Positions 21,801-62,171 are shown, counted from the first letter of the stretch. The stretch: 64,000 nt of DNA from Candidatus Bathyarchaeia archaeon (GCA_049516875.1 JBEKSS010000001.1:192001-256000); one strand, 5' to 3'. Numbers and translations are program-made. The notes: a model not told the origin generated them from the letters alone.

Positions 21801-22011
21801 TTTACCTCATTAATAACTTGCTAAATGCTTCATTAAAGAACAGTGGTGAGAATAAAAATCTTGTCCAAACCAAAAAGGCCAGCCATCGTAAAGAAGCGCG
21901 CTAGGTTGAAGAAGGGAAGATAAAATAGCACACCGATTAATATGATTCAGCCGCTGTTAAGTAACTTGTCACGCGCGTTACGAGGACATGCGACAGAAGT
22001 CAAAGGTGTGT

Positions 22012-22977
22012 TCACACTTGCGTCAGTTTCAGGTTGAATCTGTCTGACAGATTGTTCAGGTCGTGAAGCACGTAGATGAAGACGTAGCCTCTCCACTGGC
22101 CCCATCTGTCCTCTGCGATCTTTTTAAGCTTTTGAATTAGGTTGCGTGGCGATTCTGCCTCTTCTCCAAGGAGGAGCATGCTGAATATTTTTGTGCTCCA
22201 GACGTCCAGCGCGAACCCCGGATGGGGCGAGACTATGTCTGCGGAGTATTCGCCTATCCCCTTGAGTTCCATCAGCTTAGCTTTTGCCTCCTGAGCCGAC
22301 AGCTCTTCAAGCTCCTGCAGCGACGGAAAACCTCGTCGTATGGATTCTGCTATGCTTTTGAGAGGTTTTGCTCTGTAACCAAGCTTGCACTTTTGCTCAA
22401 GCTCTCTGACATCAGCATTCGCTATCCTTTCTGGAGAAGGCCAGTACAAGATTTCTTTTTCATCGAACCTGACTCTGTCGCCGTATTCCTTGATTAGCAA
22501 GGTCATCATTTGGTTGCTTCTCGTTATCGGGGCCATCTGTAAGGTTACCGCTAATATGAGACGTGAGAAGATGTCAGGCTGTTTCGTGTTTCTCATCCCG
22601 TACAGATCTTTCACTAACGCTCTGACGAGTGGGTCGCGCTTAGCAAGGGCGTAGAATTCTCTAATATCCTCCCTGAGACTTAGCATCCACGTTGCGGTTT
22701 TCGACAGCTCTCTTCTTTCGCTTGCTCCAAGCTCTTGGCGGGAGTACACCTCACAAGATATCGCCGGTCTCCCCACTGTTCCAGTAGACTTTAACTTCAG
22801 CCCGAACACGTCTCCAGAAGGTGTCCTCATCGCAGTCCACAACACGCCTTTCTCGAATATTTCGAAGGGTGTTAGTAACGACCACCCAGCGGGCTTGTGA
22901 ACTGTGAGCGCAAAGTCATACGGGGGAACTGCCTTAAGCCTTAGAATTGTAGAATAGGTCAAATCGTTTGAGAGCAT
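22012..22977 (-). CDS. HhH-GPD DNA glycosylase (AlkA/Ogg1-like)
   Basis: KLGYRAK, LKGIGEYSAD, LDVW, WGQWRGY; start uncertain (22977-23100). Confidence 0.85.
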   Translation of the reverse strand: MLSNDLTYSTILRLKAVPPYDFALTVHKPAGWSLLTPFEIFEKGVLWTAMRTPSGDVFGLKLKSTGTVGRPAISCEVYSRQELGASERRELSKTATWMLSLREDIREFYALAKRDPLVRALVKDLYGMRNTKQPDIFSRLILAVTLQMAPITRSNQMMTLLIKEYGDRVRFDEKEILYWPSPERIANADVRELEQKCKLGYRAKPLKSIAESIRRGFPSLQELEELSAQEAKAKLMELKGIGEYSADIVSPHPGFALDVWSTKIFSMLLLGEEAESPRNLIQKLKKIAEDRWGQWRGYVFIYVLHDLNNLSDRFNLKLTQV

Positions 22978-23132
22978 TCTCACACCCATCGCCTTTCTCA
23001 GTCTCTTCGACCGCCTCTGAAACCATTTTTTTCGAATCTTGATTCGCGCAATTATCCGAACAATCTGAACTAAACGGCTCTTGCAAATATGCCTTTGCAA
23101 GTGAACGTGATGTCAGAAAGTCAGCGCGTGCG

Positions 23133-24050
23133 TCATTGGGTTTCTCCGTACATTTGATTCGGGACTAGTATGTCTGCGAATCTGTTTCGTAATGTCAAGC
23201 GTGCGGCAAAACACAGGTGGCACGCGTCAGCATAGGTGTCGTCGTGTGGCAGATTGAACTTTTCAACTAGGGCTGCTGGACCTCCGTGAATCAGGGGTTC
23301 CAGAATTGGATTCTTGGACGGGTCGTACTCCTCAATTATCTTTGACAGCGGTTTTTGGAACGCGTTGCCTATTGAGATGCCTTGGCAAACGTGCACGTAC
23401 CCAAATGGGTCTATGTGGACTCTTTTCTGATTGACGAAGTCTTCGTACGGGCACTTTGTGAATTCGCGCCAGGGCTTTTTGCTTGCCCTTTCAGTCAGTT
23501 TTGAAGCGGCTCGACCGCGGAACATTAGCTCCCAAGGATCAACTTTTACTCCTTCAATCTGGTTTGGGCAGGGAACTTGAGCGAAAGGATCCTTAACAGC
23601 TATCACCCCTGCCTTGATTTTCAGCTTGCTCGCAGCTTTCACAGCATTTCTCACTTGTTCAGTTTCCCAGGTTTCGCCGTGATAAAGGTCGCTGCTAAAG
23701 CTAAACTCAACATTTTCGGTTTTTGCCATTGGAAGAAGCCATTCCACAGCATCTTCCACGCTGTTAGCCCAGTAACAGTTCGAAAGAACCTCTACGTGAA
23801 AACCCAGGCTTGTAGCCTCCCTGACAAGATGAACCATGATTGGATAGTACAAGAAGGGCTCCCCGCCTTCCGCCGAGACGAAGTTCACCGTTCCAAGCTT
23901 CCTAGCTTCTGTCAGAATCCCTCTTATTCGCTCAAGAGTGAACGCACCCTGCGCCTTTGGACCGCCCCAAACGAAGCAATGATCACATTCCAACCCGCAT
24001 TTATATGTCAAAATAAAGTGAACACCCTTCAAATCCAACGGAAACACCAA
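23133..24050 (-). CDS. Radical SAM protein
   Basis: CGLECDHC, GGEP, C-terminal Cys cluster (SPASM/twitch-like). Confidence 0.9.
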   Translation of the reverse strand: MVFPLDLKGVHFILTYKCGLECDHCFVWGGPKAQGAFTLERIRGILTEARKLGTVNFVSAEGGEPFLYYPIMVHLVREATSLGFHVEVLSNCYWANSVEDAVEWLLPMAKTENVEFSFSSDLYHGETWETEQVRNAVKAASKLKIKAGVIAVKDPFAQVPCPNQIEGVKVDPWELMFRGRAASKLTERASKKPWREFTKCPYEDFVNQKRVHIDPFGYVHVCQGISIGNAFQKPLSKIIEEYDPSKNPILEPLIHGGPAALVEKFNLPHDDTYADACHLCFAARLTLRNRFADILVPNQMYGETQ

Positions 24051-24285
24051 CCAAGTGTAAAGAAACCAGGATAATTAAGTTTTAGACATTCACGCGTGCT
24101 AACGCTAGGCGAGTTGGCACATCATCCGCAACTCTGTTTTTTTCTGTCGAATCGATTAAGACATATTGCGTTGCATAATCGATAAAGGGCAGAGATGCGG
24201 ACAATGATTTGCTGGTCCCATCGAAATCAGGTCAGCGAGGAGAGCGCCTTTCCTCAGAACAAGAATTCAACCGTCGCCTACATAG

Positions 24286-25131
24286 TTGATGGATAGAAAC
24301 GTCTTGAGAAACCTAATTTCAGTCTCGAGTGCACCGATTGCAAAGCTAGGAGGCAAGAAGTACTATGACCTCTCTGGCACGCTGGAGGTATTGAGAATGG
24401 TTTTTCGAGACTCGGCTGTTGATGGCTTCGAACTGCAACTTGAGCCGGAATGGGATGGTGAAAATCCGCCGCTGACGGACGCGGAACTCGCAGATTGGGC
24501 AGAAACTCCCAAGTTCACATTCAGAGAGATTCTCACTCTGCTGAGAGAGCAAAGGCTGCCAGTTTTGTCGATTCATGCAAGCAGAGATGTCGGCAACTAT
24601 CTTTGTTCCGGCCGAAAACGAGACTTGGAAAAGGGAAAGCGATTGATCAGTGATTCGTTGTCTCTTGCTGACGACTTGGAAACTGAGATTTGCGTGTTCC
24701 ACATTTGGGACACTTGGAAGACAAAATTCGACCCGAACAAATTGACGAAGGGTTTTCTTGACATTGCGTCTCAGTTCCCTAGAGTGAAGGCTTCTGTAGA
24801 GAATATTCCAACTCACCTTAAGCACTACACACCGTTTTCTTTGGTTGAACAGTTTGATTTCGTAACCCTTGATCTGAGATGGGCAGCACTCTATGATGAG
24901 CTGGACAAGTTTGAATCAGTAATCGACAAGGTTGTAAATGTTCACCTGCGAGGAAGACTGGAACAGAATACTTGGGTTCTTGATAGGTCGAGTTTCAGTT
25001 TTCAAGAGGCGCTAGATAGAATTACAAATAGATGGAGATACCAAGGGCTTCTCACAGTCGAACCTGAAGGCGGCGTAGAGAGTCCCTGCTATGACAGTTT
25101 CATCAGAGCCATGAAATCTCTTAAGAACTAA
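24286..25131 (+). CDS. Sugar phosphate isomerase/epimerase-like TIM-barrel protein
   Basis: SIHA, VFH, VEN, TLD, NVHL, TVE metal-ligand pattern. Confidence 0.75.
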   Translation: MMDRNVLRNLISVSSAPIAKLGGKKYYDLSGTLEVLRMVFRDSAVDGFELQLEPEWDGENPPLTDAELADWAETPKFTFREILTLLREQRLPVLSIHASRDVGNYLCSGRKRDLEKGKRLISDSLSLADDLETEICVFHIWDTWKTKFDPNKLTKGFLDIASQFPRVKASVENIPTHLKHYTPFSLVEQFDFVTLDLRWAALYDELDKFESVIDKVVNVHLRGRLEQNTWVLDRSSFSFQEALDRITNRWRYQGLLTVEPEGGVESPCYDSFIRAMKSLKN

Positions 25132-25265
25132 TGTGTCGCATTCTGATGCTTGCTCTTCATCCAGAACATGTTGATGGTGCCGGGGATGGGATTTGAATGA
25201 TAGACGAATGAACACGTCATCCGCAAATCCCTGTTTTTCTTTTCAGCGAAGGGCTCCACACATGG

Positions 25266-35806: not shown

Positions 35807-35950
35807 ATGCATCTGGACGAGACAGATGTCAAAACCTTGAAAGCGTTGACTGCGAAGGCTAGACTCTCATCAAGACAAGTTGACAAGCAGTGCGACATTT
35901 CAATCGGCACGACGCCAGACCAAAAAAGAGAGTTTATCGTCCAGAAGTAA
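35807..35950 (+). pseudogene. Truncated Lrp/AsnC regulator (HTH only)
   Basis: MHLDETDVKTLKALTAKARLSSRQVDKQCDISIGT then similarity stops just before the att-like repeat. Confidence 0.7.
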
Positions 35951-35981
35951 GTTGAAGGTGCGGGGGATGGGGTTTGAACCC
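35951..35981 (-). repeat. att site: 31-bp direct repeat of the tRNA-Leu(TAG) 3' end
   Basis: GTTGAAGGTGCGGGGGATGGGGTTTGAACCC is identical at 35951-35981 and 39215-39245. Confidence 0.9.
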
Positions 35982-37457: not shown

Positions 37458-37463
37458 TGATAT

Positions 37464-38641: not shown

Positions 38642-38905
38642 GCGCGCAAAAGACTTATGAAAATCTACGGTCTAGTCAGAACTTACCGTCTTGACTGCGT
38701 TGAACAGAACGTCGCATGGGCAAGCAGCCTGGTCAACTATTTTGAGCAGAAGGCTTCCGCAGGCACGGTTCTCGCATTCACAAGCGACCTTTCCGTTAGA
38801 GCGGTCATTAGCACAAACGTATACATTACAGGGGTCAATTTCACCGCCGAAAACATAGGGACCCAGAACATAAGAAACTTCACGCTTGCTCTCCAGGAAG
38901 CCTAG
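38642..38905 (+). pseudogene. 3' gene fragment, possibly of viral origin
   Basis: Open, protein-like frame from GCGCGC at 38642 to a stop just before GCGCGCGC at 38907; lies inside the island; viral origin is inference. Confidence 0.35.
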
Positions 38906-38914
38906 AGCGCGCGC

Positions 38915-39184
38915 TTAATCAAGCAGATAAGCTTCAAGACACTGCGACATTGGAAAGCTACTATGGAGTATCAGCGAACAAAAGACATTCTTCACGTCAT
39001 GAACGTACTCGGCCACAAGAACATCAAGAACACCCTTATCTACACGCACATGGTGAACTTGGAAGGCGACGAATACGTCTCAAAAGCCGCATGGAACCTC
39101 GAAGAAGCATGCAAGCTTGTGGACGATGGCTTCGACTACGTGACAGACATGGAAGGAGTCAAACTCTTCAGAAAACGCAAGTAA
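38915..39184 (+). pseudogene. Tyrosine integrase C-terminal fragment
   Basis: LIKQISFKTLRHWKATMEY...LGHKNIKNTLIYTH with catalytic R, H and Y; N-terminal part missing. Confidence 0.9.
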
Positions 39185-39222
39185 CATGCATTAGGGGGGT
39201 TCATCCAAAAACATGTTGAAGG

Positions 39223-39364
39223 TGCGGGGGATGGGGTTTGAACCCATGCAGCCCTACGGCAACAGGTTTCTTAAAACGGTGTCTGTTCCAACCAAACTGG
39301 TTTTTCTTTTCTGGGCAACGTTTTCCTAAGCCTGTCTCCTTTGGCCAAACTCGGACACCCCCGC
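39223..39364 (-). tRNA. tRNA-Leu(TAG) with 57-nt canonical 37/38 intron (39258-39314)
   Basis: GCGGGGG/CCCCCGC acceptor, ACAGG-CTTAGG^intron^A-CCTGT, long variable arm; BHB with CTTA/TAAG central helix. Confidence 0.93.
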
Positions 39365-40196: not shown

Positions 40197-40273
40197 GCCT
40201 CGGTAGCCTAGCCCGGTGGGGCTCCGCCTTGGTAAGGCGGGGGTCGCGGGTTCGAATCCCGCCCGAGGCTCCA
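40197..40273 (+). tRNA. tRNA-Thr(GGT)
   Basis: GCCTCGG/CCGAGGC acceptor, CCGCC-TTGGTAA-GGCGG, TTCGAAT loop, encoded CCA. Confidence 0.95.
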
Positions 40274-40362
40274 CGGAAGCTTCTTTCGTGAAAGAAACTT
40301 TCAAGAGAGCACGCGCGCAGATTTATCTACACCTTGAGAATCATGAAATACAGGGATGTTGG

Positions 40363-42183: not shown

Positions 42184-42465
42184 CTTCAAGAGACCGCGGC
42201 ATCGACCCGTCTCTAAACTCGCAGCCCAGAAACCCGTTGAAACTTCCTTCCGTAAATCCCATACAACATACACGCACACGGCGAGAGTGCATGAGAAGTA
42301 TTTGTTAAATTTAGTGAGCAGCGAGCACTAGGCCTTACAACGACTCTCTGGACGATTTGTTGCCTCGGCGTTTATATGATTCCCTGTCCATTTGGTTTCA
42401 ATGATGTTTTTCCTTGCAGACAGACTTTTTAGTTGGTTTCGCCATCTACGAGTATTCGTGGTTGC

Positions 42466-42813
42466 ATGGCTGATAAAATTGAGGTTTACATTAGGAATGA
42501 AGAGGTTGTAACCGGTGAGGCTGTCTATGGGAAAGTCGTTGCAGAACACGGATGCCCTGTCGTAAGAGGTGTCAAAACTGAAAAAGTCATGCCTGAAGCC
42601 GATAGAACGGCTCTCGACGTTGTAAACCGTTTCGCAGATGACAAGGGATTGCAAGTCGAAATCTGCAGCCTCGGCACGTTTACTGGAAGATTGAAGGCTA
42701 GGCAGAAGGGGGTTAAGACGACACCCACGATAGTGATTGGCAAGTTCAGAATTGAAGGAGAACTCACTCCAGAACTGTTAAGAAGCAAGTTAGAATTAGC
42801 CTTGAAAGAATAG
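42466..42813 (+). CDS. Thioredoxin/glutaredoxin-fold-like small protein
   Basis: GVKTTPTIVIG cis-Pro motif; no CxxC. Confidence 0.6.
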   Translation: MADKIEVYIRNEEVVTGEAVYGKVVAEHGCPVVRGVKTEKVMPEADRTALDVVNRFADDKGLQVEICSLGTFTGRLKARQKGVKTTPTIVIGKFRIEGELTPELLRSKLELALKE

Positions 42814-42878
42814 TCTGAGTTACGGCTCGTTTCGACAGCTACGGGAATGAGGGTAGTGGGGAAAGTAGCGGGTTGAGA

Positions 42879-42968
42879 GGAGAAAGTTTGGTTTTGGATA
42901 AAACTGTACCGCACTACTCAAGTCATTCACACACGGGTAAAGTTTAGGTTTGGGATAAAACTTTACCC
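42879..42968. repeat. Tandem pair of ~33-bp palindromic sites
   Basis: GGGTAAAGTTT-N12-AAACTTTACCC (42935-42968) and degenerate copy GGAGAAAGTTTGGTTTTGGATAAAACTGTACC (42879-42910). Confidence 0.7.
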
Positions 42969-43173
42969 CACCAACCAACCACTACCACAACCCACACCGC
43001 AACCTCTGCCTATCTGCACTCCTGCCACTGCACCTACCACTCCTCCTATACCTACCTATACCAGCACACACACGCACGCACACGGCGAGTGTGTGAGTGA
43101 AGCGCGCGTCTCCGAACGGCGAGGTCACCAGGTCTCTCCAAAATCCCCATTTTTATCTTTACTGAGGCGCACG

Positions 43174-43938
43174 CTACTCTTCAGAAATAGTCTCTATGAT
43201 AGCTTTCAAGAGGACCTCTGTGCTCTCTCTGACTGACTGGTCTCCAAAAGCTAGCTGCCACCCATTCTCAGTCAAGATATCAGAGATAACCTGCGCTGAA
43301 GCAGCCCTAACATTCCTGTATTTCGCAATTGCGAAAACAGCCGACGTCTCCATGTCCACCGCCAAGATTCCGGTTTCTTTGAACTTTCGAAGTTTTCCTC
43401 GGGTTTCTCTATAAGCTCCATCAGTCGACCAGACAGGGCCAATGAAGTGTCTGATTCTCTTCTCCTTCAGATGCTCAACTAGCTTGTCTCTAAGTGGAAT
43501 GTCGGACTCAACTTCCACTTCTGGTGAGAAATAATGGTGTGAGGTTCCCTCATCGCGAATCGCTCCAGTTACGACAACAATGTCGCCTGGTTGAAGGTAA
43601 GACTGTATTCCACCTGAGACGCCAACTTCAAAAACAGTCTTTGCACCACATGCGATGGCTTCCTCCAACGTGAAACCGGCTGCAGGAGCTCCTATCCAGA
43701 AGCGGCCAACTCCGACTTCTAAGCCGTCTACCTGTCCAACGCAGAAAGGCTGGCTTTCACCATAAAGCCATTCAACGCATTTTCCTTTGATCAGGTTTCT
43801 TGCACATTCAAACGTGCTTCTCTGGTAAGTCAATACAAGGCGCTGAGGGATTCCTAGCGATTCTATCGAGACCTTTTTGCTTTTGGCAGCATAGCTGACG
43901 ACATCAGATGGCTTGGAAACGGACTCGTCGTCGCTCAA
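43174..43938 (-). CDS. Nucleoside phosphorylase (PNP/UDP family)
   Basis: IGAP, IRDEGTSHHY, WSTDG.YRET, VDMETSA, ISD. Confidence 0.9.
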   Translation of the reverse strand: MSDDESVSKPSDVVSYAAKSKKVSIESLGIPQRLVLTYQRSTFECARNLIKGKCVEWLYGESQPFCVGQVDGLEVGVGRFWIGAPAAGFTLEEAIACGAKTVFEVGVSGGIQSYLQPGDIVVVTGAIRDEGTSHHYFSPEVEVESDIPLRDKLVEHLKEKRIRHFIGPVWSTDGAYRETRGKLRKFKETGILAVDMETSAVFAIAKYRNVRAASAQVISDILTENGWQLAFGDQSVRESTEVLLKAIIETISEE

Positions 43939-44152
43939 TTCTCTCTCTACCCTTGCACTAATCTATCTGGTATGGTTCAGCTATATCCTTTCCGTACCAC
44001 TCCGCTGCGAACACCTGCTGTTTTGTCCAAGCAAAACATGAACAATCCCCTTTTCTTCTTAGCAACATGGCTTCAAACTGAAAACCACATATTTTTGCGA
44101 GAATTTCCCTAGGAAGAGCCTGTTGGACGCATAACATACGTGCCATGTTCTA

Positions 44153-44199
44153 GGTGCGGGGGGTGGGATTCGAACCCCCGCCACAGTGGCGACGTCTCC
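44153..44199 (-). repeat. Orphan tRNA-Leu-type 3' fragment plus conserved arm (att-like)
   Basis: Minus strand GGGTTCGAATCCCACCCCCCGCACC; plus-strand flank AGTGGCGACGTCTCC matches the arm at 35989 and 47125. Confidence 0.75.
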
Positions 44200-44389
44200 C
44201 GCAAAATCCCTTTTTTCTTTTTTGCAGAAATAAATTGAGCCAACCAACTACGCCACGAACATTCGATGAAGCCTCCGAAAATGCGGGTGCTCTTTTTTTT
44301 GAGAACGATAGATTGAAATCGCACCTCTAATCATTTAGAATTGTTGGACGTGGTGTAAGCTGAATTCTAAGCTTCCGGCCGAGCCAATT

Positions 44390-47065
44390 TTGGTGGGCAG
44401 GGACCAAGAAATCAAACAGTTTACACAATACTTTGACTCTGCCATGAGGGGAAAGGGAGCCACCATATTCGCTTGTGGTGAGGCGGGAGTCGGAAAGACA
44501 AGACTGGTCAATGAGTTTTTGAACCAAGCAAAGAAAAAAGGAGCAAAAATTCTTCAGGGCTATTGCTTGAGCGAGGTGGACATACCCTACTTTCCTTTTA
44601 CAGAGGCATTTAACACCTATATGTCAGCGATGAGTGATGAAAAGGCGAAATCCTCCGTGACAAAGCAGCTGGGAATTACAGGATGGCTGAGAGGGTCTGG
44701 AATCACACGTGAAGCGAAAGCAAGTGAACTCTTTTCAACTCCAGAAATAGAACGAGACAGAACGTTTGAGGCAGTGGCAAGAGTTCTCCTTCAGCTGTCC
44801 ACTCAAGAACCATTAATCCTGTTTCTGGATGACTTGCAGTGGGCAGACCACCTAAGCTTGGCTATACTTCACTACTTGGCAAGGAAGTGTAGAAACTCTC
44901 GGCTTCTCATAATCGGCACGTATAGACCAGAAGACCTTGTTCACACTAAAGAAGAGAAACTCCATCCACTAGAAGAAATCATGTTTTCGATGAGTCGAGA
45001 AGACCTATTGGTTAAAATGGAGTTGAAACGCTTAAGGCGAAACGATTTCCCAGACTTTTTACGGTCAATCTTTCACTCTTCATTGGATGAAGCATTCGTA
45101 GAAAAACTGTATGAGGAAACTGAAGGCAACCCTTTTTTTGCGGTTGAGACGCTAAACCTCCTTGTAGAAGAAGGTTTCCTTTCAGAAAAAGAGGGTCGCT
45201 GGATGCTAATGGCTCCAACGGAGAAAATCGGAATACCTTCAAAGGTTCACGATGTCATCATTCGGAGAATCGCGAGACTCGAACGAGAAGAAAGAAAACT
45301 ATTGGACCTCGCCGCAGTCTGCGGTCATTCCTTCACTCCAGACACCCTAAGCAGAACCTTAGCTCTAGACATAGCCGATGTTCTGCAAGAACTGGTGGAG
45401 ATTGAACAGAGACACCGACTAATACGCTCCACTGACACAACATTTGAATTCACACACCAAAAAATAAGAGAAGTCATATACTCAAACTTGCCAGGCGAGT
45501 TAAGGAGAGTATACCATCTCAAAACGGCAAATTGCCTCGAACAAGCCCTCACCGAAAGAACTTCAGACGGTTACATAGCTGACATAGCCCTTCACTACGT
45601 CGAAGGAGCAGCTCCAGAGAAAGCGTTCGAATATCTTCTCAAACTTGGCGAAAAAGCTGTAAACATCTTTGCAAACATGCAAGCAATAGATTATCTAGAC
45701 AAGGCATTAGAAGCCACACAGAAAAATGCAAACCTTGCCCAGGGTGAAAATCTTGTTGAAATCTACAAGCTCAGAGGCAGAGCTTGGCTGAGTCAAGGAG
45801 AAATGGCAAAAGCTAGCAACGATTTCAATTTGTTGCTACAAAATGCTACTTCCATCGGTGATGAATCAATGATTGCAGAAGCGCACTATTGGCTAGGTTA
45901 TGCTCTAACGGGGCTAGGAAAAATAGATGAGGCTAAGCTACATCTTACAAGAGCGCTGGAAATCGCGCGAAAGATAGGCAATAAACACGTTGAAGCTGGA
46001 AGTCTACTTCAACTTGTCGAATCGCTCTTTGTATACGCAGACACCATGGAAGAAGCTCTTATGCAAATTGAAGAGTCGCTTAGAATATGTAGAGAGATAA
46101 CGGACAGAGTCCTCGAAGCCAAATGCCTCGGTTACCTCGGATTCTACTATGACTGGAAAGGCGAGTTCAAGCAAGCCAAAAAAAACATCAATGAGGCGTT
46201 GGCGTTAGCTGAGGAAATGGACGATAACCCCGGAAAAATGTGGGCATTATTGCTTTCGGGCATGGTTCATGCTGGTGAAGGGGAATACGATGATGCCATT
46301 TCAATCTTACAAAGATGTCTCCAACTCTCCCGAGATTGGGGCATTGTTTTTTTCGTTCCGCGAGCCCTCAATGTCCTCGGTTGGATTTATCATGACTTAG
46401 GAGACATCGAATTTGCAATTAAATACAACAACGAAGGACTAAAAATTACCAGAATACACCAAGAGAGTATGGGCATATCCGGAGTGCAGCTAGCTTGTTT
46501 AGTAAATCTAGGAATGGACTATCTACACAAGAACGATTATGGAAATGCAAAGAAGTACTTCCAAGAAGCAAACAGCGTGATTCATTTACATCCAATGGCT
46601 AAGTGGCGTTTCGAAACTCGTATACTTCTAGGTCTCGTTGAAATATCACTCGCTGAGGGCGATTATTCACAAGCACTAAAATTCGGTGAAGACTCTTTAG
46701 CCATATCTGAAAAGGCAGGCGCCAAAAAATACATATCCAAAAGTTTGAAGTTAAAAGCTGAAATACTCGCAAAAATGGGCAAAACCGAGGAAGCAATCGA
46801 GCTAATGCAGAACGCCTTGAAATTTGCACAAGAGGTTGGCAACCCACCGCTCCTTTGGCAAACACATTATTCTCTCGGGCTTTTGCTCGAAAAACAAGGT
46901 AACCTACAAAAAGCCAATGAACACTATGCCCAGGCCATAGCCCGCATGGAAGAGACAGCATCAAAACTCAAAGATGAATCCCTTAAGAACAGTCTGTTAA
47001 CGGCTCAACAGACAAAGGCAATATACGACGCTTACGCCAAAACAAAACCGACTTCTAACACCTAA
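44390..47065 (+). CDS. STAND-like AAA ATPase with C-terminal TPR array
   Basis: VGRDQE, GEAGVGKTRL, LDDLQWAD, TYR, TEGNPFF, FTHQKIRE, long TPR region; no obvious effector domain. Confidence 0.88.
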   Translation: MVGRDQEIKQFTQYFDSAMRGKGATIFACGEAGVGKTRLVNEFLNQAKKKGAKILQGYCLSEVDIPYFPFTEAFNTYMSAMSDEKAKSSVTKQLGITGWLRGSGITREAKASELFSTPEIERDRTFEAVARVLLQLSTQEPLILFLDDLQWADHLSLAILHYLARKCRNSRLLIIGTYRPEDLVHTKEEKLHPLEEIMFSMSREDLLVKMELKRLRRNDFPDFLRSIFHSSLDEAFVEKLYEETEGNPFFAVETLNLLVEEGFLSEKEGRWMLMAPTEKIGIPSKVHDVIIRRIARLEREERKLLDLAAVCGHSFTPDTLSRTLALDIADVLQELVEIEQRHRLIRSTDTTFEFTHQKIREVIYSNLPGELRRVYHLKTANCLEQALTERTSDGYIADIALHYVEGAAPEKAFEYLLKLGEKAVNIFANMQAIDYLDKALEATQKNANLAQGENLVEIYKLRGRAWLSQGEMAKASNDFNLLLQNATSIGDESMIAEAHYWLGYALTGLGKIDEAKLHLTRALEIARKIGNKHVEAGSLLQLVESLFVYADTMEEALMQIEESLRICREITDRVLEAKCLGYLGFYYDWKGEFKQAKKNINEALALAEEMDDNPGKMWALLLSGMVHAGEGEYDDAISILQRCLQLSRDWGIVFFVPRALNVLGWIYHDLGDIEFAIKYNNEGLKITRIHQESMGISGVQLACLVNLGMDYLHKNDYGNAKKYFQEANSVIHLHPMAKWRFETRILLGLVEISLAEGDYSQALKFGEDSLAISEKAGAKKYISKSLKLKAEILAKMGKTEEAIELMQNALKFAQEVGNPPLLWQTHYSLGLLLEKQGNLQKANEHYAQAIARMEETASKLKDESLKNSLLTAQQTKAIYDAYAKTKPTSNT

Positions 47066-47091
47066 GGAAAAGCGACCCCAAATTTGCAGGG

Positions 47092-47139
47092 TGGTGCGGG
47101 GGATGGGGTTTGAACCCGTCTCCGAGTGGCGATGCCTCC
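47092..47139 (-). repeat. Orphan tRNA-Leu 3' fragment plus arm (att-like)
   Basis: 47093-47134 is identical to 35957-35998 (42 bp); ends in ACCA on the minus strand. Confidence 0.88.
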
Positions 47140-47332
47140 CGAAATCCGCCATCACATGACCGTTTTCTTCTGAGAAAAGAAAGGTCAAACTGGCTTAAAA
47201 GGACCGATAGAGGATAATTCTACAATTTTCTCCCATTTACTCGGAAGCAGTTCCCTTTGCTTTTTCTGTGTATTTTACAACACCCAGTTCTTCGTATATT
47301 TCCAACAAGTTTGAGGCTCCCCAATTAAGCTG

Positions 47333-48001
47333 TTATTTTAACTCAAAAGTATGGACAGTCTTGAGTTTTGGATGTTTCTTGAATAAATGAGCGTTCACTA
47401 GCTCTATGGAATCAACAGTCATTTTTCCAAACTCTGTATCCCTCAGCTTTTCTAGGTAGCTGATTAGTCTGGTGAAATCTTCTTTCTTCTGAAAATGCAT
47501 TATGCTGATGTGAGGCAAAAAACTTGGATAATCAAATTTCCTCTTTCTTATCTCGGGTATTGCCTGCAGTCTTCTATGTATCTCTTCAATCTTGTCCCCA
47601 TCATGAACCTCCACAAAGACAACATCTGGGAAAATGTTGAGTTTAGAAAGGAATACATCAAATTTGCTGAATTGTTGTAAAACTTCTTTCGCTTGATTGA
47701 TTATTCTCTGCAAGTTCTCAACCAAAATATCGTCTTCATATTCTTCTGATTTTGCCAAGAATCCAAGCCCCATTACAGATATGTGAAAATAGTCTTTCGG
47801 GAAGGGAGCAACACAAGAAATAGTGGATAGCCACCTCTGAATCTCAACTATCTTCTCAATCAGTCCCGCATCTCTAATCCTTACATGAAAAGTCAGATAT
47901 TGATTTCTTCCTTTAGCCCATTCATTGTCAACCCAATATTTCGTTAGATTCAATTGGACGTTCTTTCTTCTTTCCCAAACATCTGTAAATCTGTCGCTCA
48001 T
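47333..48001 (-). CDS. 2H phosphoesterase (2'-5' RNA ligase-like family)
   Basis: Two HxS motifs: YFHISV and LPHISI. Confidence 0.85.
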   Translation of the reverse strand: MSDRFTDVWERRKNVQLNLTKYWVDNEWAKGRNQYLTFHVRIRDAGLIEKIVEIQRWLSTISCVAPFPKDYFHISVMGLGFLAKSEEYEDDILVENLQRIINQAKEVLQQFSKFDVFLSKLNIFPDVVFVEVHDGDKIEEIHRRLQAIPEIRKRKFDYPSFLPHISIMHFQKKEDFTRLISYLEKLRDTEFGKMTVDSIELVNAHLFKKHPKLKTVHTFELK

Positions 48002-48258
48002 ACATTCAATTGACAGTCTTTCTTACCTAAAGTCTTTTTGAACTATGCGGTTCAGCTATAACTTTTCCGCAAAATCGAAAGTTCTTTTAGGACTCGGTGA
48101 CACTCTTCTCGTAAGACAAAGATGGAAACCTGAAAATTAACCAGTTGGTTAAAAAATGGCACATGCAGTTAACGCGCGCGCCTGCTCATGGCGGGGTGCC
48201 ACTGGCCATGGCGATGGCACTGGAGGTGTGTAGGTCTTACGGAGCTCCGCTTTATGGC

Positions 48259-48987
48259 CTATTGCGAGGGTCGTTTTGAGCCAGGCTTCGGCAGGAAGCA
48301 TGTCTCCGTAGCCAATGACCCATATATCTTCTTGATAAGTCGCAACCCCGATTTGCGATCCAGGCCCGGCTTCCAGCACCTTGCCAACAGGTCCCGTGCT
48401 TTCATGTCTCCGTAGCCAATCGCCCAAGCGTCACACTCGGCCTGAGATCCCAGTACGTCTATGTCAGCAATCTTCTGGACCCCGTCGTCAAACCCTCCGA
48501 GGAGAACGAAGAGAGCAAGCGGTCGGTTGACCGTGCTCACCGCGTGCTCGTGGAGGATGCCCCGAATCCTGTGTGCTGCATCCCTGAATGTCTGGATGTC
48601 CTCGCTCGTAAGCACATCATGAACATGGAACATGTCTCCCTTATTGCCAGTGGCCACGAACGCCAGCGATTGGGCTACGTGCCAGACCGAAGGAATCTCG
48701 CTCCTCAATCCTGGCTTGACAGAAGCTTTCCCTTTGGCTATGAGCAGCCCATCCGTCGTCTTCATCGCGATAGCGAGGTTGCCGCCTGATGGACACTTCC
48801 GTGCCCACTCCACCTGGAGCAGTCTCCCCTCTGGCGTGAACATGCCGGGCTTGGCAAACTCCGAGCTCTCGGGAAGCGGCTGGTATTTGCTCGGCGTTCC
48901 AATGCATGGTTTTGCCCTAGCCATCGAACTCACCTGTTGAATGAATGCGCGATGCGTTATTTCAAGCTTTTTCTGCCATCCTTCCAC
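48259..48987 (-). CDS. Divergent proteasome alpha-like protein
   Basis: MFTPEGRLLQVEWA, IAMKTTDG, ATG..GD, RPL..VLLGGFD, AIGYG. Confidence 0.75.
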   Translation of the reverse strand: MEGWQKKLEITHRAFIQQVSSMARAKPCIGTPSKYQPLPESSEFAKPGMFTPEGRLLQVEWARKCPSGGNLAIAMKTTDGLLIAKGKASVKPGLRSEIPSVWHVAQSLAFVATGNKGDMFHVHDVLTSEDIQTFRDAAHRIRGILHEHAVSTVNRPLALFVLLGGFDDGVQKIADIDVLGSQAECDAWAIGYGDMKARDLLARCWKPGLDRKSGLRLIKKIYGSLATETCFLPKPGSKRPSQ

Positions 48988-49091
48988 ACCAAACTGTCTT
49001 TCTCCCGCGCGCGCAAAATCGAGAAAAACCCAGACGGCTTCATAACCGTGAGAAAGGAGGCTTAAACACGGCCTCTTTTTCTTTTTTTAAG

Positions 49092-49286
49092 ATGAGTTTC
49101 AAGAAGCCGCAGGTTATGCTTATGCTTTCCATTGCCGTGTTGATGTTCGCTCTTGACTGGCTTTTTCTTTGGATAGACGATTTGCAGAGACTCAAGAAAG
49201 GAAGGTTAGTCATCAGCGCGCACAAAGGAATGGCGCTTACAATAGAGAAAAATGCGGATAACTCTGCAACCATTCACAAAGCCTAA
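49092..49286 (+). CDS. Small membrane protein or fragment
   Basis: One hydrophobic helix; GCGCGC inside suggests a junction. Confidence 0.35.
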   Translation: MSFKKPQVMLMLSIAVLMFALDWLFLWIDDLQRLKKGRLVISAHKGMALTIEKNADNSATIHKA

Positions 49287-49448
49287 GACCCTTCTTTTTT
49301 TGCAACCTCTACATTTTTCAGTCAATCTAACCCTAGCCCCTATACTCCTTTCCTTGCGCGCTAGACATTGAATCCAAAAGCACAGAGCAACCAGAATAAT
49401 TGTTTAAATATGGATTATGTGCAATGAAGATAAAGAGGGACGCGGTTA

Positions 49449-50991: not shown

Positions 50992-51107
50992 GCCGGGGTA
51001 GCCTAGCCTGGCCAGGGCGCCAGACTCATAATCTGGAGAACAATAAACGGGGCACAAAGGCGCCCAGTGTCCAGAAGTCGCGGGCTCGAATCCCGCCCCC
51101 GGCACCA
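50992..51107 (+). tRNA. Elongator tRNA-Met(CAT) with 38-nt non-canonical intron in the variable loop (51039-51076)
   Basis: GCCGGGG/CCCCGGC acceptor, CCAGA-CTCATAA-TCTGG; removing 51039-51076 restores AGGTC; encoded CCA. Confidence 0.9.
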
Positions 51108-51218
51108 CTATCACGTACTTGGCACGATTGTCGTCTATGGCAATTTGATGACGGTTAAGCATTAGGTCTTGATGGCCCTCTCCGACCAAGACAGCGCGCG
51201 TTAACAGATCGAGCTGCC

Positions 51219-51803: not shown

Positions 51804-51894
51804 TCACTTGCAGCCTCCCACTCACACCATATGCAGCAACACACTTACAAAACTAACGACTAACCCGTTACCAGCGCGCACAAGAAACAAACAC

Positions 51895-52045
51895 ATCAAA
51901 ACACCCAAAACTTTTGACACTCAAAAACTAGGCAGAATTGAGTAAAAAAAGCACGGAACCAACATGCTTCAACAATGTTTTGACACTCAAAGAAATCACG
52001 GATTGAGCACTCAAACACAAGGCCTCGAAACCCAACACACAGCCA
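51895..52045 (+). repeat. 151-bp non-coding element, copy 1 (TTTTGACACTCAAA / TTGAG box array)
   Basis: Colinear with the reverse complement of 58273-58423; 18 mismatches by hand alignment. Confidence 0.9.
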
Positions 52046-54593: not shown

Positions 54594-55202
54594 CTACTCT
54601 ATGCTTATGGGTTCGCCCCTAGGCGGTTTTCCATCTTTTGCTCTTGGCAAGGTGACCTCCAGCACACCGTTCTTGTACTGCGACTTTGCCTCTCTCACCC
54701 TGACTTTCCCAGGCAAAGAGACCTCCTTGAAGTACTTGCGCTGAGGGGTGTCCACCATTATGGTCAAAGTGTCCTCGGTTCCGCTCAGCTTTATGTCCTC
54801 CTTCTCAACGCCTGGCAGTTCAGCCACAACCTGGATTTCACCGTTCATCTCAACTATGTCCACCAGAGGCTCACGCTCCTCCTGCACGTGGGGAAGTCCG
54901 TTTCGCCTCGGCTTGACGTTTCCAAACTCGCGGATTTTAGGCTTCCCGTCAGGACCCACTTTCATACTGTAGCCGTACACGAAAGGCCCAAACTCGCGCG
55001 CTGTCGAACCGTCCGGCAGTCTACGCTCCCTCACGTAGTCTTTGGGAACTCGGGAAGCGAAATCTCTGAACTCTTCTTCCATCATCTTCTCCATCTCTTC
55101 GAAAATCTTGTCAACATCATCAAAGCCCCAGTCTCTGAAGAAGGGAGATCGCCTCTTCCTGTACCACTCTGGATCATCCTCCGAAGGCATCGCATCCATC
55201 AC
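54594..55202 (-). CDS. hsp20: Archaeal small heat shock protein Hsp20
   Basis: GPFVYGYS..VGPDGKP..REFGN, ELPGV.KEDI, YKNGVLEV. Confidence 0.95.
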   Translation of the reverse strand: MMDAMPSEDDPEWYRKRRSPFFRDWGFDDVDKIFEEMEKMMEEEFRDFASRVPKDYVRERRLPDGSTAREFGPFVYGYSMKVGPDGKPKIREFGNVKPRRNGLPHVQEEREPLVDIVEMNGEIQVVAELPGVEKEDIKLSGTEDTLTIMVDTPQRKYFKEVSLPGKVRVREAKSQYKNGVLEVTLPRAKDGKPPRGEPISIE

Positions 55203-55256
55203 CCTTGCCTAAAATGAACAACGCGTTTGTCTATAAATGTTGTGCGGCACGGGCGC

Positions 55257-58272: not shown

Positions 58273-58423
58273 TGGCTACATGTTGGAATTCGAGACCTTG
58301 TGTTTGAGTACTCAATCCGTGATTTCTTTGAGTGCCAAAACATTGTTGAACAATGTTGGTTCAGCGCTTTTTTTACTCAATTCCGCGAGGCTTTTGAGTG
58401 CCAAAAGTTTTGGGTGTTTTGAT
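58273..58423 (-). repeat. 151-bp non-coding element, copy 2 (inverted)
   Basis: Reverse complement matches 51895-52045; contains perfect palindrome TTGAGTACTCAA. Confidence 0.9.
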
Positions 58424-58599
58424 TTTTCTTGAGGTCTCTGTTTTGCTGGTTTCTTCCGTTAGAGAGTGGGTTTTGGAGTGGGTTCTGGTTGGGTGGCGAG
58501 GTGGTGTGTAGGTTGCGCTTCAGGATGGTTTTGCCCTGCTGTTTTTATGTTTGAAGGATCTGTGTATTCAGTCAGAGTCGGGTTGGGTGGGGTTTTCAG

Positions 58600-58893
58600 G
58601 TGCTTGAGTATCTTGTTGTTATGTTGGTCTTTGCGCTTCCTTTCGTTTTGTTTGCTCTGCACAAGAGGCGGTTTTCCGCGCTGGGTTTGGCAGCTGTCAC
58701 GGGTCTGACTATAAGTGTGCTGTGGGACTTGATTTCCGCTGTTCTTTCCACATGTGGTTGTGGAATGCAGACATCCTTCTTTGTGTGATGATAGGCCGTT
58801 GCCGCTTGAAGAATACCTGTTCATGGTGCTGGTTCCGATGATGCTTGTAGGAGCGGCGCTAATCTTCAATCTCTATGAGCCTGCCCCAAGATG
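58600..58893 (+). pseudogene. Lycopene cyclase domain (CrtYc/d-type) gene, frameshifted
   Basis: ..LWDLISAV / FHMWLWNADILL.VMIG / LPLEEYLFMVLVP spread across shifted frames. Confidence 0.7.
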
Positions 58894-58996
58894 AACACTT
58901 TGAAGACTTGCGGATTTGAACAAATCGCATGTGCCGCGAAATGTTTCTCTTCGATTGAAAATTCAAGGTTGGCTCAAGAACTGACTGAAACCACGT

Positions 58997-59665: not shown

Positions 59666-59794
59666 AATAAACTTGCCTTAGCTGCCATTTCTATTAAATA
59701 TTTGCCCCTCCGTTGCCGATTTTACCTGAAAGCCGCGTCCGAATCATAAGCTCGCCACCAGCCGTGCACGTTTCATAAAGGATCCGAGTTAGAC

Positions 59795-60781
59795 CTAGGA
59801 TATATAAGTCAGAGCGGTAGCGATGGCTCCATAGAGGCCAATGTCGTCGCCTAAGGGTGTAACCATTATTTTGGGGATTCTGTTTATTACGTAGTCTTTC
59901 ACATGTTTTGTTATTGGAGACATGACCATCTTCTTGTTCTTCAGCGTCACGGTCCCACCGACAGTGATCAGTGATGGATCATACGCGTTTACAACGTTCG
60001 CAAAGCCTATTGCGTTTAATACGCCAATTTCCTTGACCAGTTCCACGGACATATTGTCGGCTTCTTTTGCGGCAGCGAACAAGTCACTTGCAGTCAACCT
60101 TGACAAATTGCCTCCTATCCTTTTGAGCAGCAAACTTTGCTTCACTGCTTTTTCGGGCATGTCTTTGAGTCTCATCCTAATGAAGTTTGGGATGTTGCTC
60201 CCTGAACAGTAAGCTTCCCAGTGGCCCCGCTTTCCGCAGCCGCACGTAAGCCTGCCCTCAAAGTCTATGACGATATGACCGACTTCGTGAGCGTTCCCGT
60301 CTTTTCCCAAAAGCAAAGTGCCGTTAACCATAGCTCCGCAGCCTATGCCGGTGCTTATGGTTATGTAGGCATAGTTGTCCAATCCTTTTGCAGCCCCAAA
60401 CATTTTTTCGCCAAGAGCCGCTCCAGCAGCATCGTTGATCAAGCATGAGGGTATGCCCAGTTGCTCTGAGACAGGTTTCGTGAGGGGCACGTAATCAAAC
60501 GGCATGGCCGTAGGATGGATGAGTGCGCCTTCTCTTTGGACCAGAGGACCCGTGGCCGCTATGCCGACGCCCCTTATAGATTTGACGTCACAGCCATGTT
60601 TGCTGCATAAGAAACGCGCAAGCCTGATCATCTGGTCGCTAACTGCCTTGGCACTGCTCTTGTCAACTTTTTCACTTGTTTTCGCCACGAAGTGCCCCTT
60701 TTCGTCTGTAAGAACAACTCTTACCCAAGTGCCTCCTAGATCTATCCCCATCCAGCGTTCGCCCTTAACCAAGCTCCTCAC
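59795..60781 (-). CDS. ROK family sugar kinase
   Basis: DLGGT, ND, STGIG, EVGH, CGCG..GHWE. Confidence 0.93.
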   Translation of the reverse strand: MRSLVKGERWMGIDLGGTWVRVVLTDEKGHFVAKTSEKVDKSSAKAVSDQMIRLARFLCSKHGCDVKSIRGVGIAATGPLVQREGALIHPTAMPFDYVPLTKPVSEQLGIPSCLINDAAGAALGEKMFGAAKGLDNYAYITISTGIGCGAMVNGTLLLGKDGNAHEVGHIVIDFEGRLTCGCGKRGHWEAYCSGSNIPNFIRMRLKDMPEKAVKQSLLLKRIGGNLSRLTASDLFAAAKEADNMSVELVKEIGVLNAIGFANVVNAYDPSLITVGGTVTLKNKKMVMSPITKHVKDYVINRIPKIMVTPLGDDIGLYGAIATALTYIS

Positions 60782-60920
60782 CCACAGAAAACACGTGCTA
60801 CTGCGCTAACATCTCGTACGTGCAGTTTTTATGATTTGTGGGGGTTTTCTGCTAACGTGGGTTAGCCGTTTCAAACCTGTATATGCGGTCGTAAACAAGC
60901 TATGGGTCTGATGTAAGAAA

Positions 60921-61287
60921 ATGGACCACACAGTCGTTCATTTTGACATCCCTACAAACGATGTCGCAAAATTGAGGAAGTCCTACGCGAATTTGTTTGG
61001 ATGGAAGAAGGAAAAGTGGCCTGGATCGGGAATGGAATACTGGGTGATTGAGACGGTTCCGCAAGATAAGAAAGGACGCCTGCTCAGACCAGGCGTCAAC
61101 GGTGGCATTGGAAAGAGACAGAGAGACGAAAGCCGCTTAACTGCATCTCGCAGAATCCGTCGACGAATACAGTAAGAGAATAGAGAAGCTCGGAGGCAAG
61201 ATTACTGTTCCTAAGCAAGAGATTCCTTGAATAGGCTGGTTTGCTATGGCAGTTGATCCAGAAGGCAACCCATTCGCTATAATGTAA
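60921..61287 (+). pseudogene. VOC/glyoxalase family gene, frameshift plus nonsense codon
   Basis: VVHFDIP...LFGW...NGG, then shifted frame ESVDEY..IEKLGGKI..PKQEIP*IGWFA..DPEGNPF. Confidence 0.85.
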
Positions 61288-61417
61288 CTCATGGAAACGT
61301 AGTACCTCTGCTCTGACAAAACTCGATTCTTTTTTTCAATTCTTGTTCTCTTTTTTGCTCTCAGTAGGCGCGCTCTGAGCACATCGTCGTTGAAGCGCGC
61401 GCTAACCAAAAAGACCT

Positions 61418-61810
61418 CTACGTTATCAGAACTGCCTCTCTGACACTCTTGAAGTGCATGTCTCCAGTCAAAACCTTCGCCTTAAGCCTTCTTGCCGTAG
61501 CCAACACGTATGCATCGGCCAACCCGAAATCTTTTTCAGTTTTTCGCATTTCTGCGTGCAGAACACCAGCTTCCTTCGAGATTTCCTCATTAACACTGAC
61601 AACTTGTGAATCACTCAACAGAATGTCGTAAGCAGCTTCCACATCCTGTCCATCTCTAGCCGCCTTGCTTATGACCTCGGCAACAGTCACCGCACAAGTA
61701 TACGCTTCATTATTCTCCTCTCCAAAAACAGTGGCAACCTTTGACCCACACTTGCTCCCAATGAGGTACTCTACCCAAGCGTACGCATCCACGACAAACC
61801 TCTTAGTCAT
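61418..61810 (-). CDS. vapC: VapC PIN-domain toxin
   Basis: VVDAYAW, AE, LADA, LTGD.HF. Confidence 0.9.
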   Translation of the reverse strand: MTKRFVVDAYAWVEYLIGSKCGSKVATVFGEENNEAYTCAVTVAEVISKAARDGQDVEAAYDILLSDSQVVSVNEEISKEAGVLHAEMRKTEKDFGLADAYVLATARRLKAKVLTGDMHFKSVREAVLIT

Positions 61811-61997
61811 GCGCTTTCAACTCGTCTTCAGCAGCAAAGCGGCTCATACCTCTAAGAACGCCAAAACCATCCTTTCTAACCTTCTTGACAGCTATCTCGA
61901 GGATTTCTCCCTCTCTGATTCTCTTGCTTTCCACAAGCTCCTTAGGCAAAGTAACCACTAAAGAACCGCCGACCCTGCGCGTTTTAACCACAGCCAC
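61803..61997 (-). CDS. AbrB/MazE-type antitoxin
   Basis: KTRRVGGSLVVTLPKE; overlaps toxin start. Confidence 0.9.
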   Translation of the reverse strand: MAVVKTRRVGGSLVVTLPKELVESKRIREGEILEIAVKKVRKDGFGVLRGMSRFAAEDELKAHD

Positions 61998-62171
61998 AGT
62001 ATCACTGCCATTAAACTAAATAACACTAAAGTTATATTTAACAATTCCGCAGGAGCCAAATCAACGTCCCTAGAAATAGGCTACCTTGTCTTTCTCTTCC
62101 TTCAACTCATATAGCGCGCGCTCAGCCATGTTTATAAGCGCTCAACACTATTGAGCAAATTGCAGGGGGTC

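Follow-up and report, generated by a model that had tools for sequence, protein, structure and literature searches.

The window analysed here, a 64,000-nucleotide (nt) stretch of a Candidatus Bathyarchaeia genome (G000:C1:192001-256000; G000 is a 2.43-Mb genome in 20 contigs), raises the question of why alternating C/G tracts of the type GCGCGC recur between its genes. The first-pass annotation of this DNA had read the tracts as recombination scars at the borders of accessory gene modules and had proposed a candidate archaeal cassette system behind them. We conclude that the tracts are probably the signature of one insertion sequence (IS) family specific to the genus, and that solo tracts, which adjoin no recognisable element, are mostly fused-end scars of lost copies. 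[quoted passage not shown] A full-text literature search returned, among the matches listed, no description of such a motif for archaea.

Genes in G000 were called with our own dicodon caller (2525 genes, 81.8% coding), and the calls in the window are consistent with Pfam matches, except for two false genes over tRNA genes. The genus comprises uncultured archaea found in peat and sediment metagenomes; 12 sequencing runs contain half or more of a test stretch. G000 was compared with four other genomes of the genus (G001-G004), one per species, and with 26 genomes from other genera of the family and order; all were assembled from metagenomes, where repeats often collapse or drop out.

Extent and anatomy of the motif

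The tract excess is far beyond chance and is genome-wide rather than local. Coding and intergenic DNA of G000 contained 234 and 269 tracts of 6 nt, 61 and 143 of 7 nt, 50 and 190 of 8 nt, 28 and 84 of 9 nt, and 15 and 41 of 10 nt, which correspond to intergenic-to-coding density ratios of 5.2, 10.6, 17.1, 13.5, and 12.3, and tract lengths stopped sharply above 10 nt. Coding tracts of at least 7 nt numbered 158 compared to 87.5 +/- 8.7 in 20 synonymous-codon shuffles. Coding DNA is therefore not depleted, and the signal is an intergenic surplus. The enrichment envisaged in the first-pass annotation held in this intergenic-versus-coding comparison (10-17x for tracts of 7-10 nt). The most over-represented intergenic 8-mer was GCGCGCGC, which was seen 341 times vs 15.6 expected under a second-order Markov model. 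The words GATCGATC, TCGATCGA, and ATCGATCG were likewise strongly over-represented between G000 genes (28-34 seen vs ~2.5 expected).

The motif is one palindrome, tA-GCGCGCGC-Ta, with maximal tracts reading GCGCGCGC at 176 sites vs CGCGCGCG at 13. The flanks of these 176 sites carried A at -1 (73%), T at +1 (64%), T at -2 (42%), and A at +2 (45%), and no conserved flank or larger repeat unit was found around them beyond 2 nt on either side. Intergenic A(GC)nT with n = 2-6 occurred 100, 64, 82, 14, and 1 times, compared to 45, 9, 2, 2, and 0 for reversed T(CG)nA-type controls; the even tract lengths 6, 8, and 10 predominate, with a limit at 10-12. Tract rates per kb were 0.24-0.46 in the 30 nt before gene starts, 1.2-2.1 in the first 70 nt past stops, and ~1 elsewhere. 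A promoter or terminator register was rejected, since the rate was flat apart from this start-side depletion and mild post-stop excess, with no positioned element, and hairpin pairs of tracts were rejected because the spacing of successive tracts had no preferred distance. Tandem, divergent, and convergent spacers (all contigs) contained 1.03, 0.87, and 1.42 tracts per kb, respectively.

Among relatives, the motif is amplified in 5/5 genus genomes and in 0/26 neighbours. G000 contains 98 copies of AGCGCGCGCT, and the four other genus genomes contain 29, 87, 69, and 115, compared to 0-9 copies in the 26 genomes of other genera and 2-6 copies of a reversed control within the genus. Close homologues of the transposase described below (43-100% identity) occur in 5/5 genus genomes, and elsewhere only distant ones (26-36%) were found, in 4/26. 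The motif counts thus follow the same split as the close transposase homologues, and one cause would explain both.

The insertion sequence, its MITEs, and the sites that lack them

The inverted ends of an IS5/IS1182-like IS (~1.1 kb) and of its MITEs have GCGCGC as their outermost hexamer. The autonomous copy in the source genome (G000:C7:36805-37906; 1,102 bp) has the terminal inverted repeat (TIR) GCGCGCTGSCTTGTC and a 332-aa open reading frame (ORF) that matches PF01609 (DDE_Tnp_1; 52.4 bits vs a cut-off of 23, residues 125-310) and, in its N-terminal part, PF05598 (DUF772; 35.6 bits vs 23.1). PF01609 matches over cut-off occur in 5/5 genus genomes. The nearest NCBIfam families to the 332-aa transposase were IS1182 (83.7 bits, cut-off 270) and IS5 (NF033581; 66 bits, cut-off 140); because these scores are far under the cut-offs, the protein appears to represent a divergent branch, a superfamily relative rather than a member of a curated family. 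TIR arms surround the transposase gene at L159 1411-1448 and 2475-2512 (38 nt, 74%) and in G002 (28 nt, 89%), G003 (27 nt, 100%), and G004:C77 (23 nt, 91%). The G003 copy is flanked by AATA on the left and TATT on the right, and a 1.1-kb contig of G004 ends in CGCGCCAGTGC... Three subfamilies thus have only the terminal hexamer in common.

The MITEs are non-coding and ~186 bp long. Fourteen copies of 175-215 bp are listed; 13 have ends of the type GCGCGCATGCGTGTTCC... and the remaining one has IS-B-type ends, and TA stands outside both ends in 12 of the 14. The first 21 nt of their TIR are identical to the ends of the G002 IS copy (1,082 bp), and further MITE copies are present in G001, G002, and G004. 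In G000, 55 of 2,242 tract sides run into a TIR-like 11-mer, compared to 6 in the control, and the census came to 20 complete (paired) elements and 16 lone ends, or ~4% of tracts of at least 6 nt; ~96% of tracts are therefore solo. Of the 55 TIR-like ends, 50 have a 6-nt tract and 5 a 7-nt tract, and 36 (65%) have TA as the outer dinucleotide. In filled copies, a duplication of TA looks the same as one of GCGC, and duplication and inverted repeat look alike too, because TA as well as GCGCGC is a palindrome.

This element resembles the IS5/IS1182 superfamily in its ~330-aa DUF772 and DDE_Tnp_1 transposase, its length of ~1.1 kb, its TIRs of about 17-28 nt (aligned arms up to 38 nt), and, as with known MITEs, its short non-coding derivatives that have the same ends and vary in presence among strains. 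It differs in its sub-cut-off scores, its self-complementary GCGCGC termini, and its solo palindromes, which outnumber elements by > 20:1. Membership in the Tc1/mariner/IS630 group was rejected: PF13358 (DDE_3) had 0 matches in G000-G003 and one in G004, in a GC-rich 1.9-kb contig without GCGCGC-type ends. PF01359 (mariner Transposase_1) matched in 0/5 genus genomes, but control genomes were silent too, and there was no DDE_Tnp_4 match in G000-G003. The G004 contig (L112; G004:C58:1-1927) is circularly permuted, with the DDE_3 transposase in its GC-rich half and an AT-rich other half; it is unlike the remaining genome and might be a small circular element or else DNA of foreign origin.

Contigs of four public runs were aligned to a 10-kb G000 stretch with three MITEs. 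In runs X7 and X8, from two studies, contigs (records of 3,158 and 736 nt) omit 176 nt of the MITE G000:C9:103895-104078 between flanks that are ~99% identical, and the MITE-less allele reads TA-GCGCGCGC-TA, the exact consensus of the solo motif. By this alignment, the solo tract is the allele that stands at the insertion site when the element is missing. Other joints between MITE copies in the run contigs (e.g., 2465 to 8891) are supported by short sides and could stem from assembly, and only parts covered by contigs are informative. At three other MITE sites, alignment places a solo tract of 6-10 nt at the site, or at most 3 nt from it, in a sister genome. A G004 MITE site corresponds to TA-GCGCGCGC-TA in G000:C12, a G001 MITE end corresponds to CGCGCGCGC in G000:C14, and another G004 MITE corresponds to GCGCGC, 3 nt off, in G000:C1. 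The left flank of the MITE at C9:105335 is followed by TA-GCGCGCGCGC in G002 and by TA-GCGCCCGC in G004, and contig L038 has an 8-nt tract in place of 21 nt of L040, with both flanks conserved. MITE copies 1 and 3 on C9 differ by 2% (2-5% among copies overall), and the strains with and without the element differ by ~0.7-1.2%. That the copies are more diverged than the strains leans to loss over recent gain. For 18 MITEs, no empty site with both flanks was found in local data. Three apparent TA-only empty sites were rejected on alignment, which revealed one-sided homology or, in G000:C14, a degraded remnant.

Probable scars of lost elements and competing readings

We infer that the ~1,000 solo tracts in G000 (~700 of them intergenic) are fused-end scars. 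Loss of an element would leave the joint GCGC-GCGC, and also 3+3 and 5+5 joints, either through transposase cuts placed some bases inward of the element tips or through a deletion joining its two terminal hexamers, which are self-complementary. Such scars would last only where they are harmless, that is, outside genes and core promoters and mostly in flexible regions that receive elements and tolerate adjacent deletions, and would therefore seem to mark the borders of accessory modules. Later decay by point mutation would produce the degenerate versions that were listed earlier for the window. We prefer this reading because one cause covers the motif itself as well as its co-distribution with the IS family across genomes; because fusing two 6-nt ends gives the even lengths 6, 8, and 10 and a stop at 10-12; because element flanks are uniformly 6 nt, though solo 6-mers are nearly as common as 8-mers; because one site has solo tracts of unlike length in two species (10 and 8 nt); and because MITE copies diverge more (2-5%) than the strains that have or lack them (~1%).

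In eukaryotes, Tc1/mariner elements leave excision footprints in which a few terminal bases of each end remain. The likeness lies in the TA on both sides, the end bases left behind, and the palindromic joints of variable length; the difference is that a DDE_3/mariner-type transposase was not found in G000-G003 (the mariner model being silent in controls) and that only two alleles, a possible product of excision, were seen. If the solo palindromes are excision scars, they would form an unusually complete fossil record of prokaryotic transposon loss and a simple marker of flexible genome regions in these archaea; in annotation, further evidence would be needed before the motif is labelled a terminator, a recombination site, or a site of regulation. 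In the archaeon Haloquadratum walsbyi, transposase-free elements (MITEs) outnumber transposons and underlie most strain differences, their removal by deletion between short direct repeats has been proposed ('repeat-mediated deletion'), and mobile elements tend to hit other mobile elements (PMC3119063). That case differs from the present one in that the deletion repeats are target duplications and that no abundant solo palindrome is described in the passages considered (PMC3119063).

Several observations weigh against the reading of solo tracts as scars. A clean empty site, with plain TA and without a tract, was not found, the three candidates having failed alignment, and a solo tract could thus be a pre-insertion target with a 4-bp GCGC duplication. 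Homology runs through the tract in just 1 of 67 repeat-abutting tracts, where a simple scar predicts run-through, and extra deletions or replacements must therefore be assumed; one-sided borders need such events whether the tract is a scar or a target. Only ~4% of tracts of at least 6 nt are recognisable element ends. To our knowledge, hundreds of scars per ~20 elements are without precedent in prokaryotes, and we know of no prokaryotic insertion sequences that leave footprints in such numbers. TA stands to the left of 34% of solo 8-mers vs 65% of element ends, and A at -1 is better kept than T at -2, a pattern that plain neutral decay does not predict. Only one side of the IS copy in G002 carries TA. 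Finally, the gene calls are from our own caller, and the comparison with G002 covered 393 kb of ~2.3 Mb.

The best of the alternatives, although an unlikely one, is that the IS or MITE inserts into the centre of a TA-GCGCGCGC-TA made by another process and duplicates GCGC, which would make the flanking hexamers host DNA and the tracts landing pads. IS5 makes 4-bp target duplications, and certain insertion sequences favour palindromes or repetitive extragenic palindromic (REP) sequences (IS30/REP targeting). The only clean two-flank comparison (X7/X8) fits this reading equally well, as an 8-mer plus a 4-bp duplication gives 6+6; the lack of a tract-free empty site agrees with it, and one element with 6+8 nt (L145) is what a 10-mer target predicts. 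However, insertion into ready-made tracts requires a second, unknown genus-specific motif generator, and the motif and the close homologues of the IS share a 5/5 vs 0/26 split that a single cause explains. A C5 methyltransferase over cut-off was found in 0/5 genus genomes and Vsr in 0/31. Moreover, solo A..T-flanked 6-mers number 64 vs 82 for 8-mers, yet element flanks are 6 nt at 50 of 55 ends, and TA occurs at 65% of element ends vs about one third of solo 8-mer sides.

A further idea builds on the loss of elements and is doubtful. The self-complementary GCGCGC termini might be an adaptation that, once the element has left, allows donor ends to pair and plain ligase to seal them into the joint GCGC-GCGC in an archaeon lacking Ku-type end joining, and the ~1,000 identical palindromes, free of orientation, would then serve as landing pads for the same transposase and portable microhomology. 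If so, one IS family would lay the breakpoints of the flexible genome of the genus (deletions, replacements, and module exchange).

In a synteny test on 393 kb of the sister genome G002 (~2.3 Mb), about one sixth, a tract of at least 7 nt was present in 76 of 222 (34%) spacers whose gene order differs between the two genomes, compared to 6 of 108 (5.6%) conserved spacers. Tract density was 0.62/kb in conserved spacers vs ~1.6/kb in changed-order spacers (2.5-3x), and this difference persisted within spacer-length classes. The first-pass expectation that tracts coincide with synteny breakpoints was in part borne out by this comparison. Ends of BLAST high-scoring segment pairs (HSPs) between G002 and G000 lay within 3 nt of a tract in 8 of 145 cases (300 randomisations: mean 2.9, maximum 9), a result that is suggestive but biased, because a shared GC-rich word lengthens an HSP; orthologous spacers of the two genomes had tracts in just 3 and 8 of 91, too few for a co-occurrence test. 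Of 461 intergenic tracts, 67 abut a dispersed repeat, and homology halts at the tract in 66 of these 67, compared to 47 of 64 random spacer sites by repeats (it continues in 17). Examples of such one-sided borders are a paralogous gene and a repeat copy, each cut short at a tract. Genes with a tract in both flanking spacers number 177 of 2,485 (7.1%) vs 3.9% if spacers were independent. Bracketed modules are therefore common, and tract-bearing spacers are ~1.8-fold clustered; the bracketing of modules by tract pairs noted earlier in the window is thus above independence and, at the same time, common genome-wide.

It is improbable that the palindrome is functional punctuation between transcription units, where an abundant DNA-binding protein particular to the genus would act as insulator, roadblock terminator, or nucleoid organiser, and that the IS mimics or exploits this site. 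The exclusion of tracts from the 30 nt upstream of starts and their mild excess in the 70 nt past stops would fit such a role, as would tracts at the same aligned position in several species 3' of a cyt-b5 gene and two palindrome-preserving double changes (GCATGC and CGTGCACG). Yet there is no register to starts, stops, or a promoter consensus, and the presence of a tract in only 6/108 conserved-synteny spacers is the opposite of what a conserved regulatory site implies. Tracts also decay freely by substitution at orthologous positions, and one-mismatch variants of the motif have an ordinary transition bias (62 in 8 transition types vs 31 in 16 other types).

A cassette system, in which the tracts would be recombination sites (integron-like, GCGC cleavage plus end joining, or Z-DNA breaks) that move gene modules as units, is very unlikely. 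It is consistent with the link of tracts to synteny breaks and one-sided homology borders, with the homology of three genomes that starts at window tract 49356, with a 2-kb G002 insert that starts TTATATA followed by GCGCGC, with a 909-nt segment gained or lost beside a tract in L071/L072, and with a 10-nt indel between two tracts (L036 vs the window, at 40312). However, no module was found with tract borders in two contexts, the large repeat-mediated differences from L036 use tRNA-like 45-nt and 150-nt inverted repeats, a tyrosine recombinase would find no arms in a tract of 6-10 bp, the 'accessory' part of the window has tracts at just the density of the genome mean, and a known kind of element accounts for the motif. 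Integron attC sites (imperfect palindromes of 57-141 bp) and dif-type sites together span 28-141 bp, with recombinase-binding arms, and integron cassettes stand co-oriented beside an integrase gene. The tracts resemble them as short conserved sites at variable-module borders and differ as 6-10-bp sites found with all gene orientations and genome-wide. No attC-like palindrome of 57-141 bp was found, the 176 sites being conserved only 2 nt beyond the 6-10-nt core, and there was no co-oriented cassette array, as tracts occur in all spacer types (an integrase gene was not searched for). The integron-like proposal is therefore not supported: the site lacks arms, an orientation rule, and an array, and no sign of tract-bounded movement of modules was found. 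The alternative first-pass proposal of scars from cleavage and end joining fares better: its link to rearrangement stands and it comes near the mechanism favoured here, although not as a new cassette system.

Hardly credible is an iterated palindrome of the HIP1 kind, with a matching cytosine methyltransferase and biased very-short-patch repair as its driving force: HIP1 of cyanobacteria is likewise a lineage-specific 8-bp GC-rich palindrome and its genome's most over-represented word, and CpG-to-TpG/CpA variants are common here, but the present motif is 17-fold denser between genes, unlike HIP1 (which is frequent in genes too), is tied to transposon ends, and is accompanied neither by Vsr (PF03852; 0/31 genomes) nor by the GCGC methyltransferase suggested at first pass, with the C5 type (PF00145) over cut-off in 0/5 genus genomes (one sub-threshold match in G002; controls responded; N4/N6 classes not searched).

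Tracts and neighbouring features of the window

The window contains 20 alternating C/G tracts of at least 6 nt, of which 19 lie past position 21,800. The nine main and 13 degenerate sites of the first-pass annotation are all where it placed them, with the letters it gave, and its gene names are right (HhH-GPD glycosylase, radical SAM, GNAT, DUF362, proteasome-like, nitroreductase, and a PIN/MazE-type pair). Among the nine window tracts of at least 7 nt, seven are intergenic, one is clearly coding (hsp20, 54995), and one (40312) lies in the uncertain 5' end of the GNAT ORF; hsp20 is thus confirmed as an intragenic case, but perhaps not as the only one. The reported lack of tracts in core spacers is correct as a count and weak as evidence, since positions 1-21,800 have just 2,478 nt of spacer, with 0 tracts compared to ~4 expected from the genome-wide rate. 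Positions 21,801-64,000 have 13 tracts in 8,535 intergenic nt, or 1.52/kb vs a genome mean of 1.66/kb, so that the claimed mark on accessory modules is supported by synteny breaks but not by tract density in this part. Perfect 10-mers (at most one mismatch) number 4 vs 1.5 expected, and 5 of 100 shuffles reach 4. The window alone would not prove the tract excess. TIR-like remnants beside window tracts gave 4 matches vs 2.2 expected, and because this is near chance, all window tracts were counted as solo. An assembly artefact is an unlikely source of the tracts, judging from aligned contigs: L033 (99.98% identity over 10,371 nt; it may be from the same sample) spans 43102-49356, and L036 (~96% identity) retains tracts 51194, 51874, 54995, 56283, and 58267, contrary to the suspicion of chimeras raised at first pass. 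The features are as follows, in window coordinates.

21896..21901, no strand: solo tract GCGCGC, then TA; intergenic
21972..21977, no strand: solo tract CGCGCG; intergenic
38642..38647, no strand: tract GCGCGC where a small ORF without annotation starts
38906..38915, no strand: perfect AGCGCGCGCT immediately 3' of the stop of ORF 38657-38905
40312..40318, no strand: tract CGCGCGC, 39 nt past tRNA-Thr (40197-40273)
42262..49404, no strand: 7.1-kb variable island with PNP_UDP_1, AAA_16+TPR, 2'-5' RNA ligase-like, and proteasome-like genes
43102..43108, no strand: solo tract GCGCGCG within the 7.1-kb variable island
48173..48181, no strand: solo tract CGCGCGCGC, with the 2'-5' RNA ligase-like gene on one side and the proteasome-like gene on the other
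49006..49014, no strand: solo tract CGCGCGCGC; lies 19 nt upstream of where the proteasome-like gene starts
49356..49361, no strand: tract GCGCGC, then TA; homology border upstream of gene 49449
51194..51200, no strand: tract GCGCGCG, 90 nt past an intron-containing tRNA
51874..51879, no strand: tract GCGCGC, 16 nt outside the left copy of a 150-nt inverted repeat
54995..55001, no strand: tract CGCGCGC, coding, inside hsp20; kept in L036
58267..58272, no strand: tract GCGCGC; directly adjoins the 150-nt inverted repeat at the inner end of its right copy
61368..61373, no strand: tract GCGCGC 3' of a PIN-domain gene
61394..61403, no strand: perfect AGCGCGCGCT, 16 nt past the stop of the PIN-domain gene
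62113..62122, no strand: perfect AGCGCGCGCT with TA on the left

At 40312, L036 has two tracts vs one in the window, with a 10-nt indel (GCGCGCGAGA). The inner flank of tract 51194 is weakly like an IS end (GCGCGCTGTCTTGG), with 3 mismatches, which is chance level, and tract 58267 is preceded by AGCCA, as at the IS right end. Upstream of gene 49449, the homology of the window, G002, and contig L035 starts at tract 49356, and the leftward DNA is different in all three. Gene 49449 has two unrelated promoter-region alleles (window 49362-49412), which are mixed across lineages: the window, G002, and L035 have one and L036, G003, and G004 the other, and G002 also retains the second allele as an orphan copy lying 2 kb upstream.

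The window differs from L036 by three large changes, a 3.2-kb indel, a 6.45-kb inversion, and the 7.1-kb island. The indel goes through a 45-nt tRNA-like direct repeat and the inversion through the 150-nt inverted repeat, in neither case through a tract. The island (42262-49404) is replaced by a spacer of ~60-220 nt in G003, G004, L034, L036, L037, L041, L042, L043, L044, and L092. Tracts are close to its borders but do not mark both: the right one coincides with tract 49356 in three genomes, and the left one is ~80 nt past the cyt-b5 stop. Three genomes retain an intact tract at the orthologous position 3' of the cyt-b5 gene, and in four others substitutions have degraded it. Window positions 48181-49006 had no match in G001-G004 among the matches listed. 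The island encodes an 891-aa AAA_16+TPR (STAND-like) protein, a 2'-5' RNA ligase-superfamily protein, and a divergent proteasome-subunit-like protein, a gene set that could be a defence or stress island.

Fragments resembling tRNA 3' parts (T-arm plus acceptor end) lie on the minus strand at 25156-25197, 35937-35981, 39201-39245, 44152-44200, and 47092-47140. The 3.2 kb between 35981 and 39201 are missing from L036, the junction lying within the 45-nt direct repeat, and two copies flank the 891-aa AAA_16+TPR gene. The family is present in all genus genomes and could represent integrase attachment remnants or a small RNA family. The 150-nt inverted repeat (51895-52045 and 58273-58422) belongs to a dispersed family that contains TGAGTACTCA (GAGTACTC was seen 46 times between genes vs 2.5 expected); the 6.45 kb between its copies, from an RPA-like gene to an HTH_45 winged-helix gene, are inverted in L036. 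A 30-nt promoter-like consensus of the GGAAAAGTTATAGCTGAAC type lies on the minus strand at 48049-48081 and 43973-44000, upstream of two minus-strand genes, and has many near-identical copies in all genus genomes. Lastly, the intron-containing tRNA at 50992-51104 has an Rfam match of 56.5 bits, was missed by ARAGORN, and had been covered by a false ORF call.

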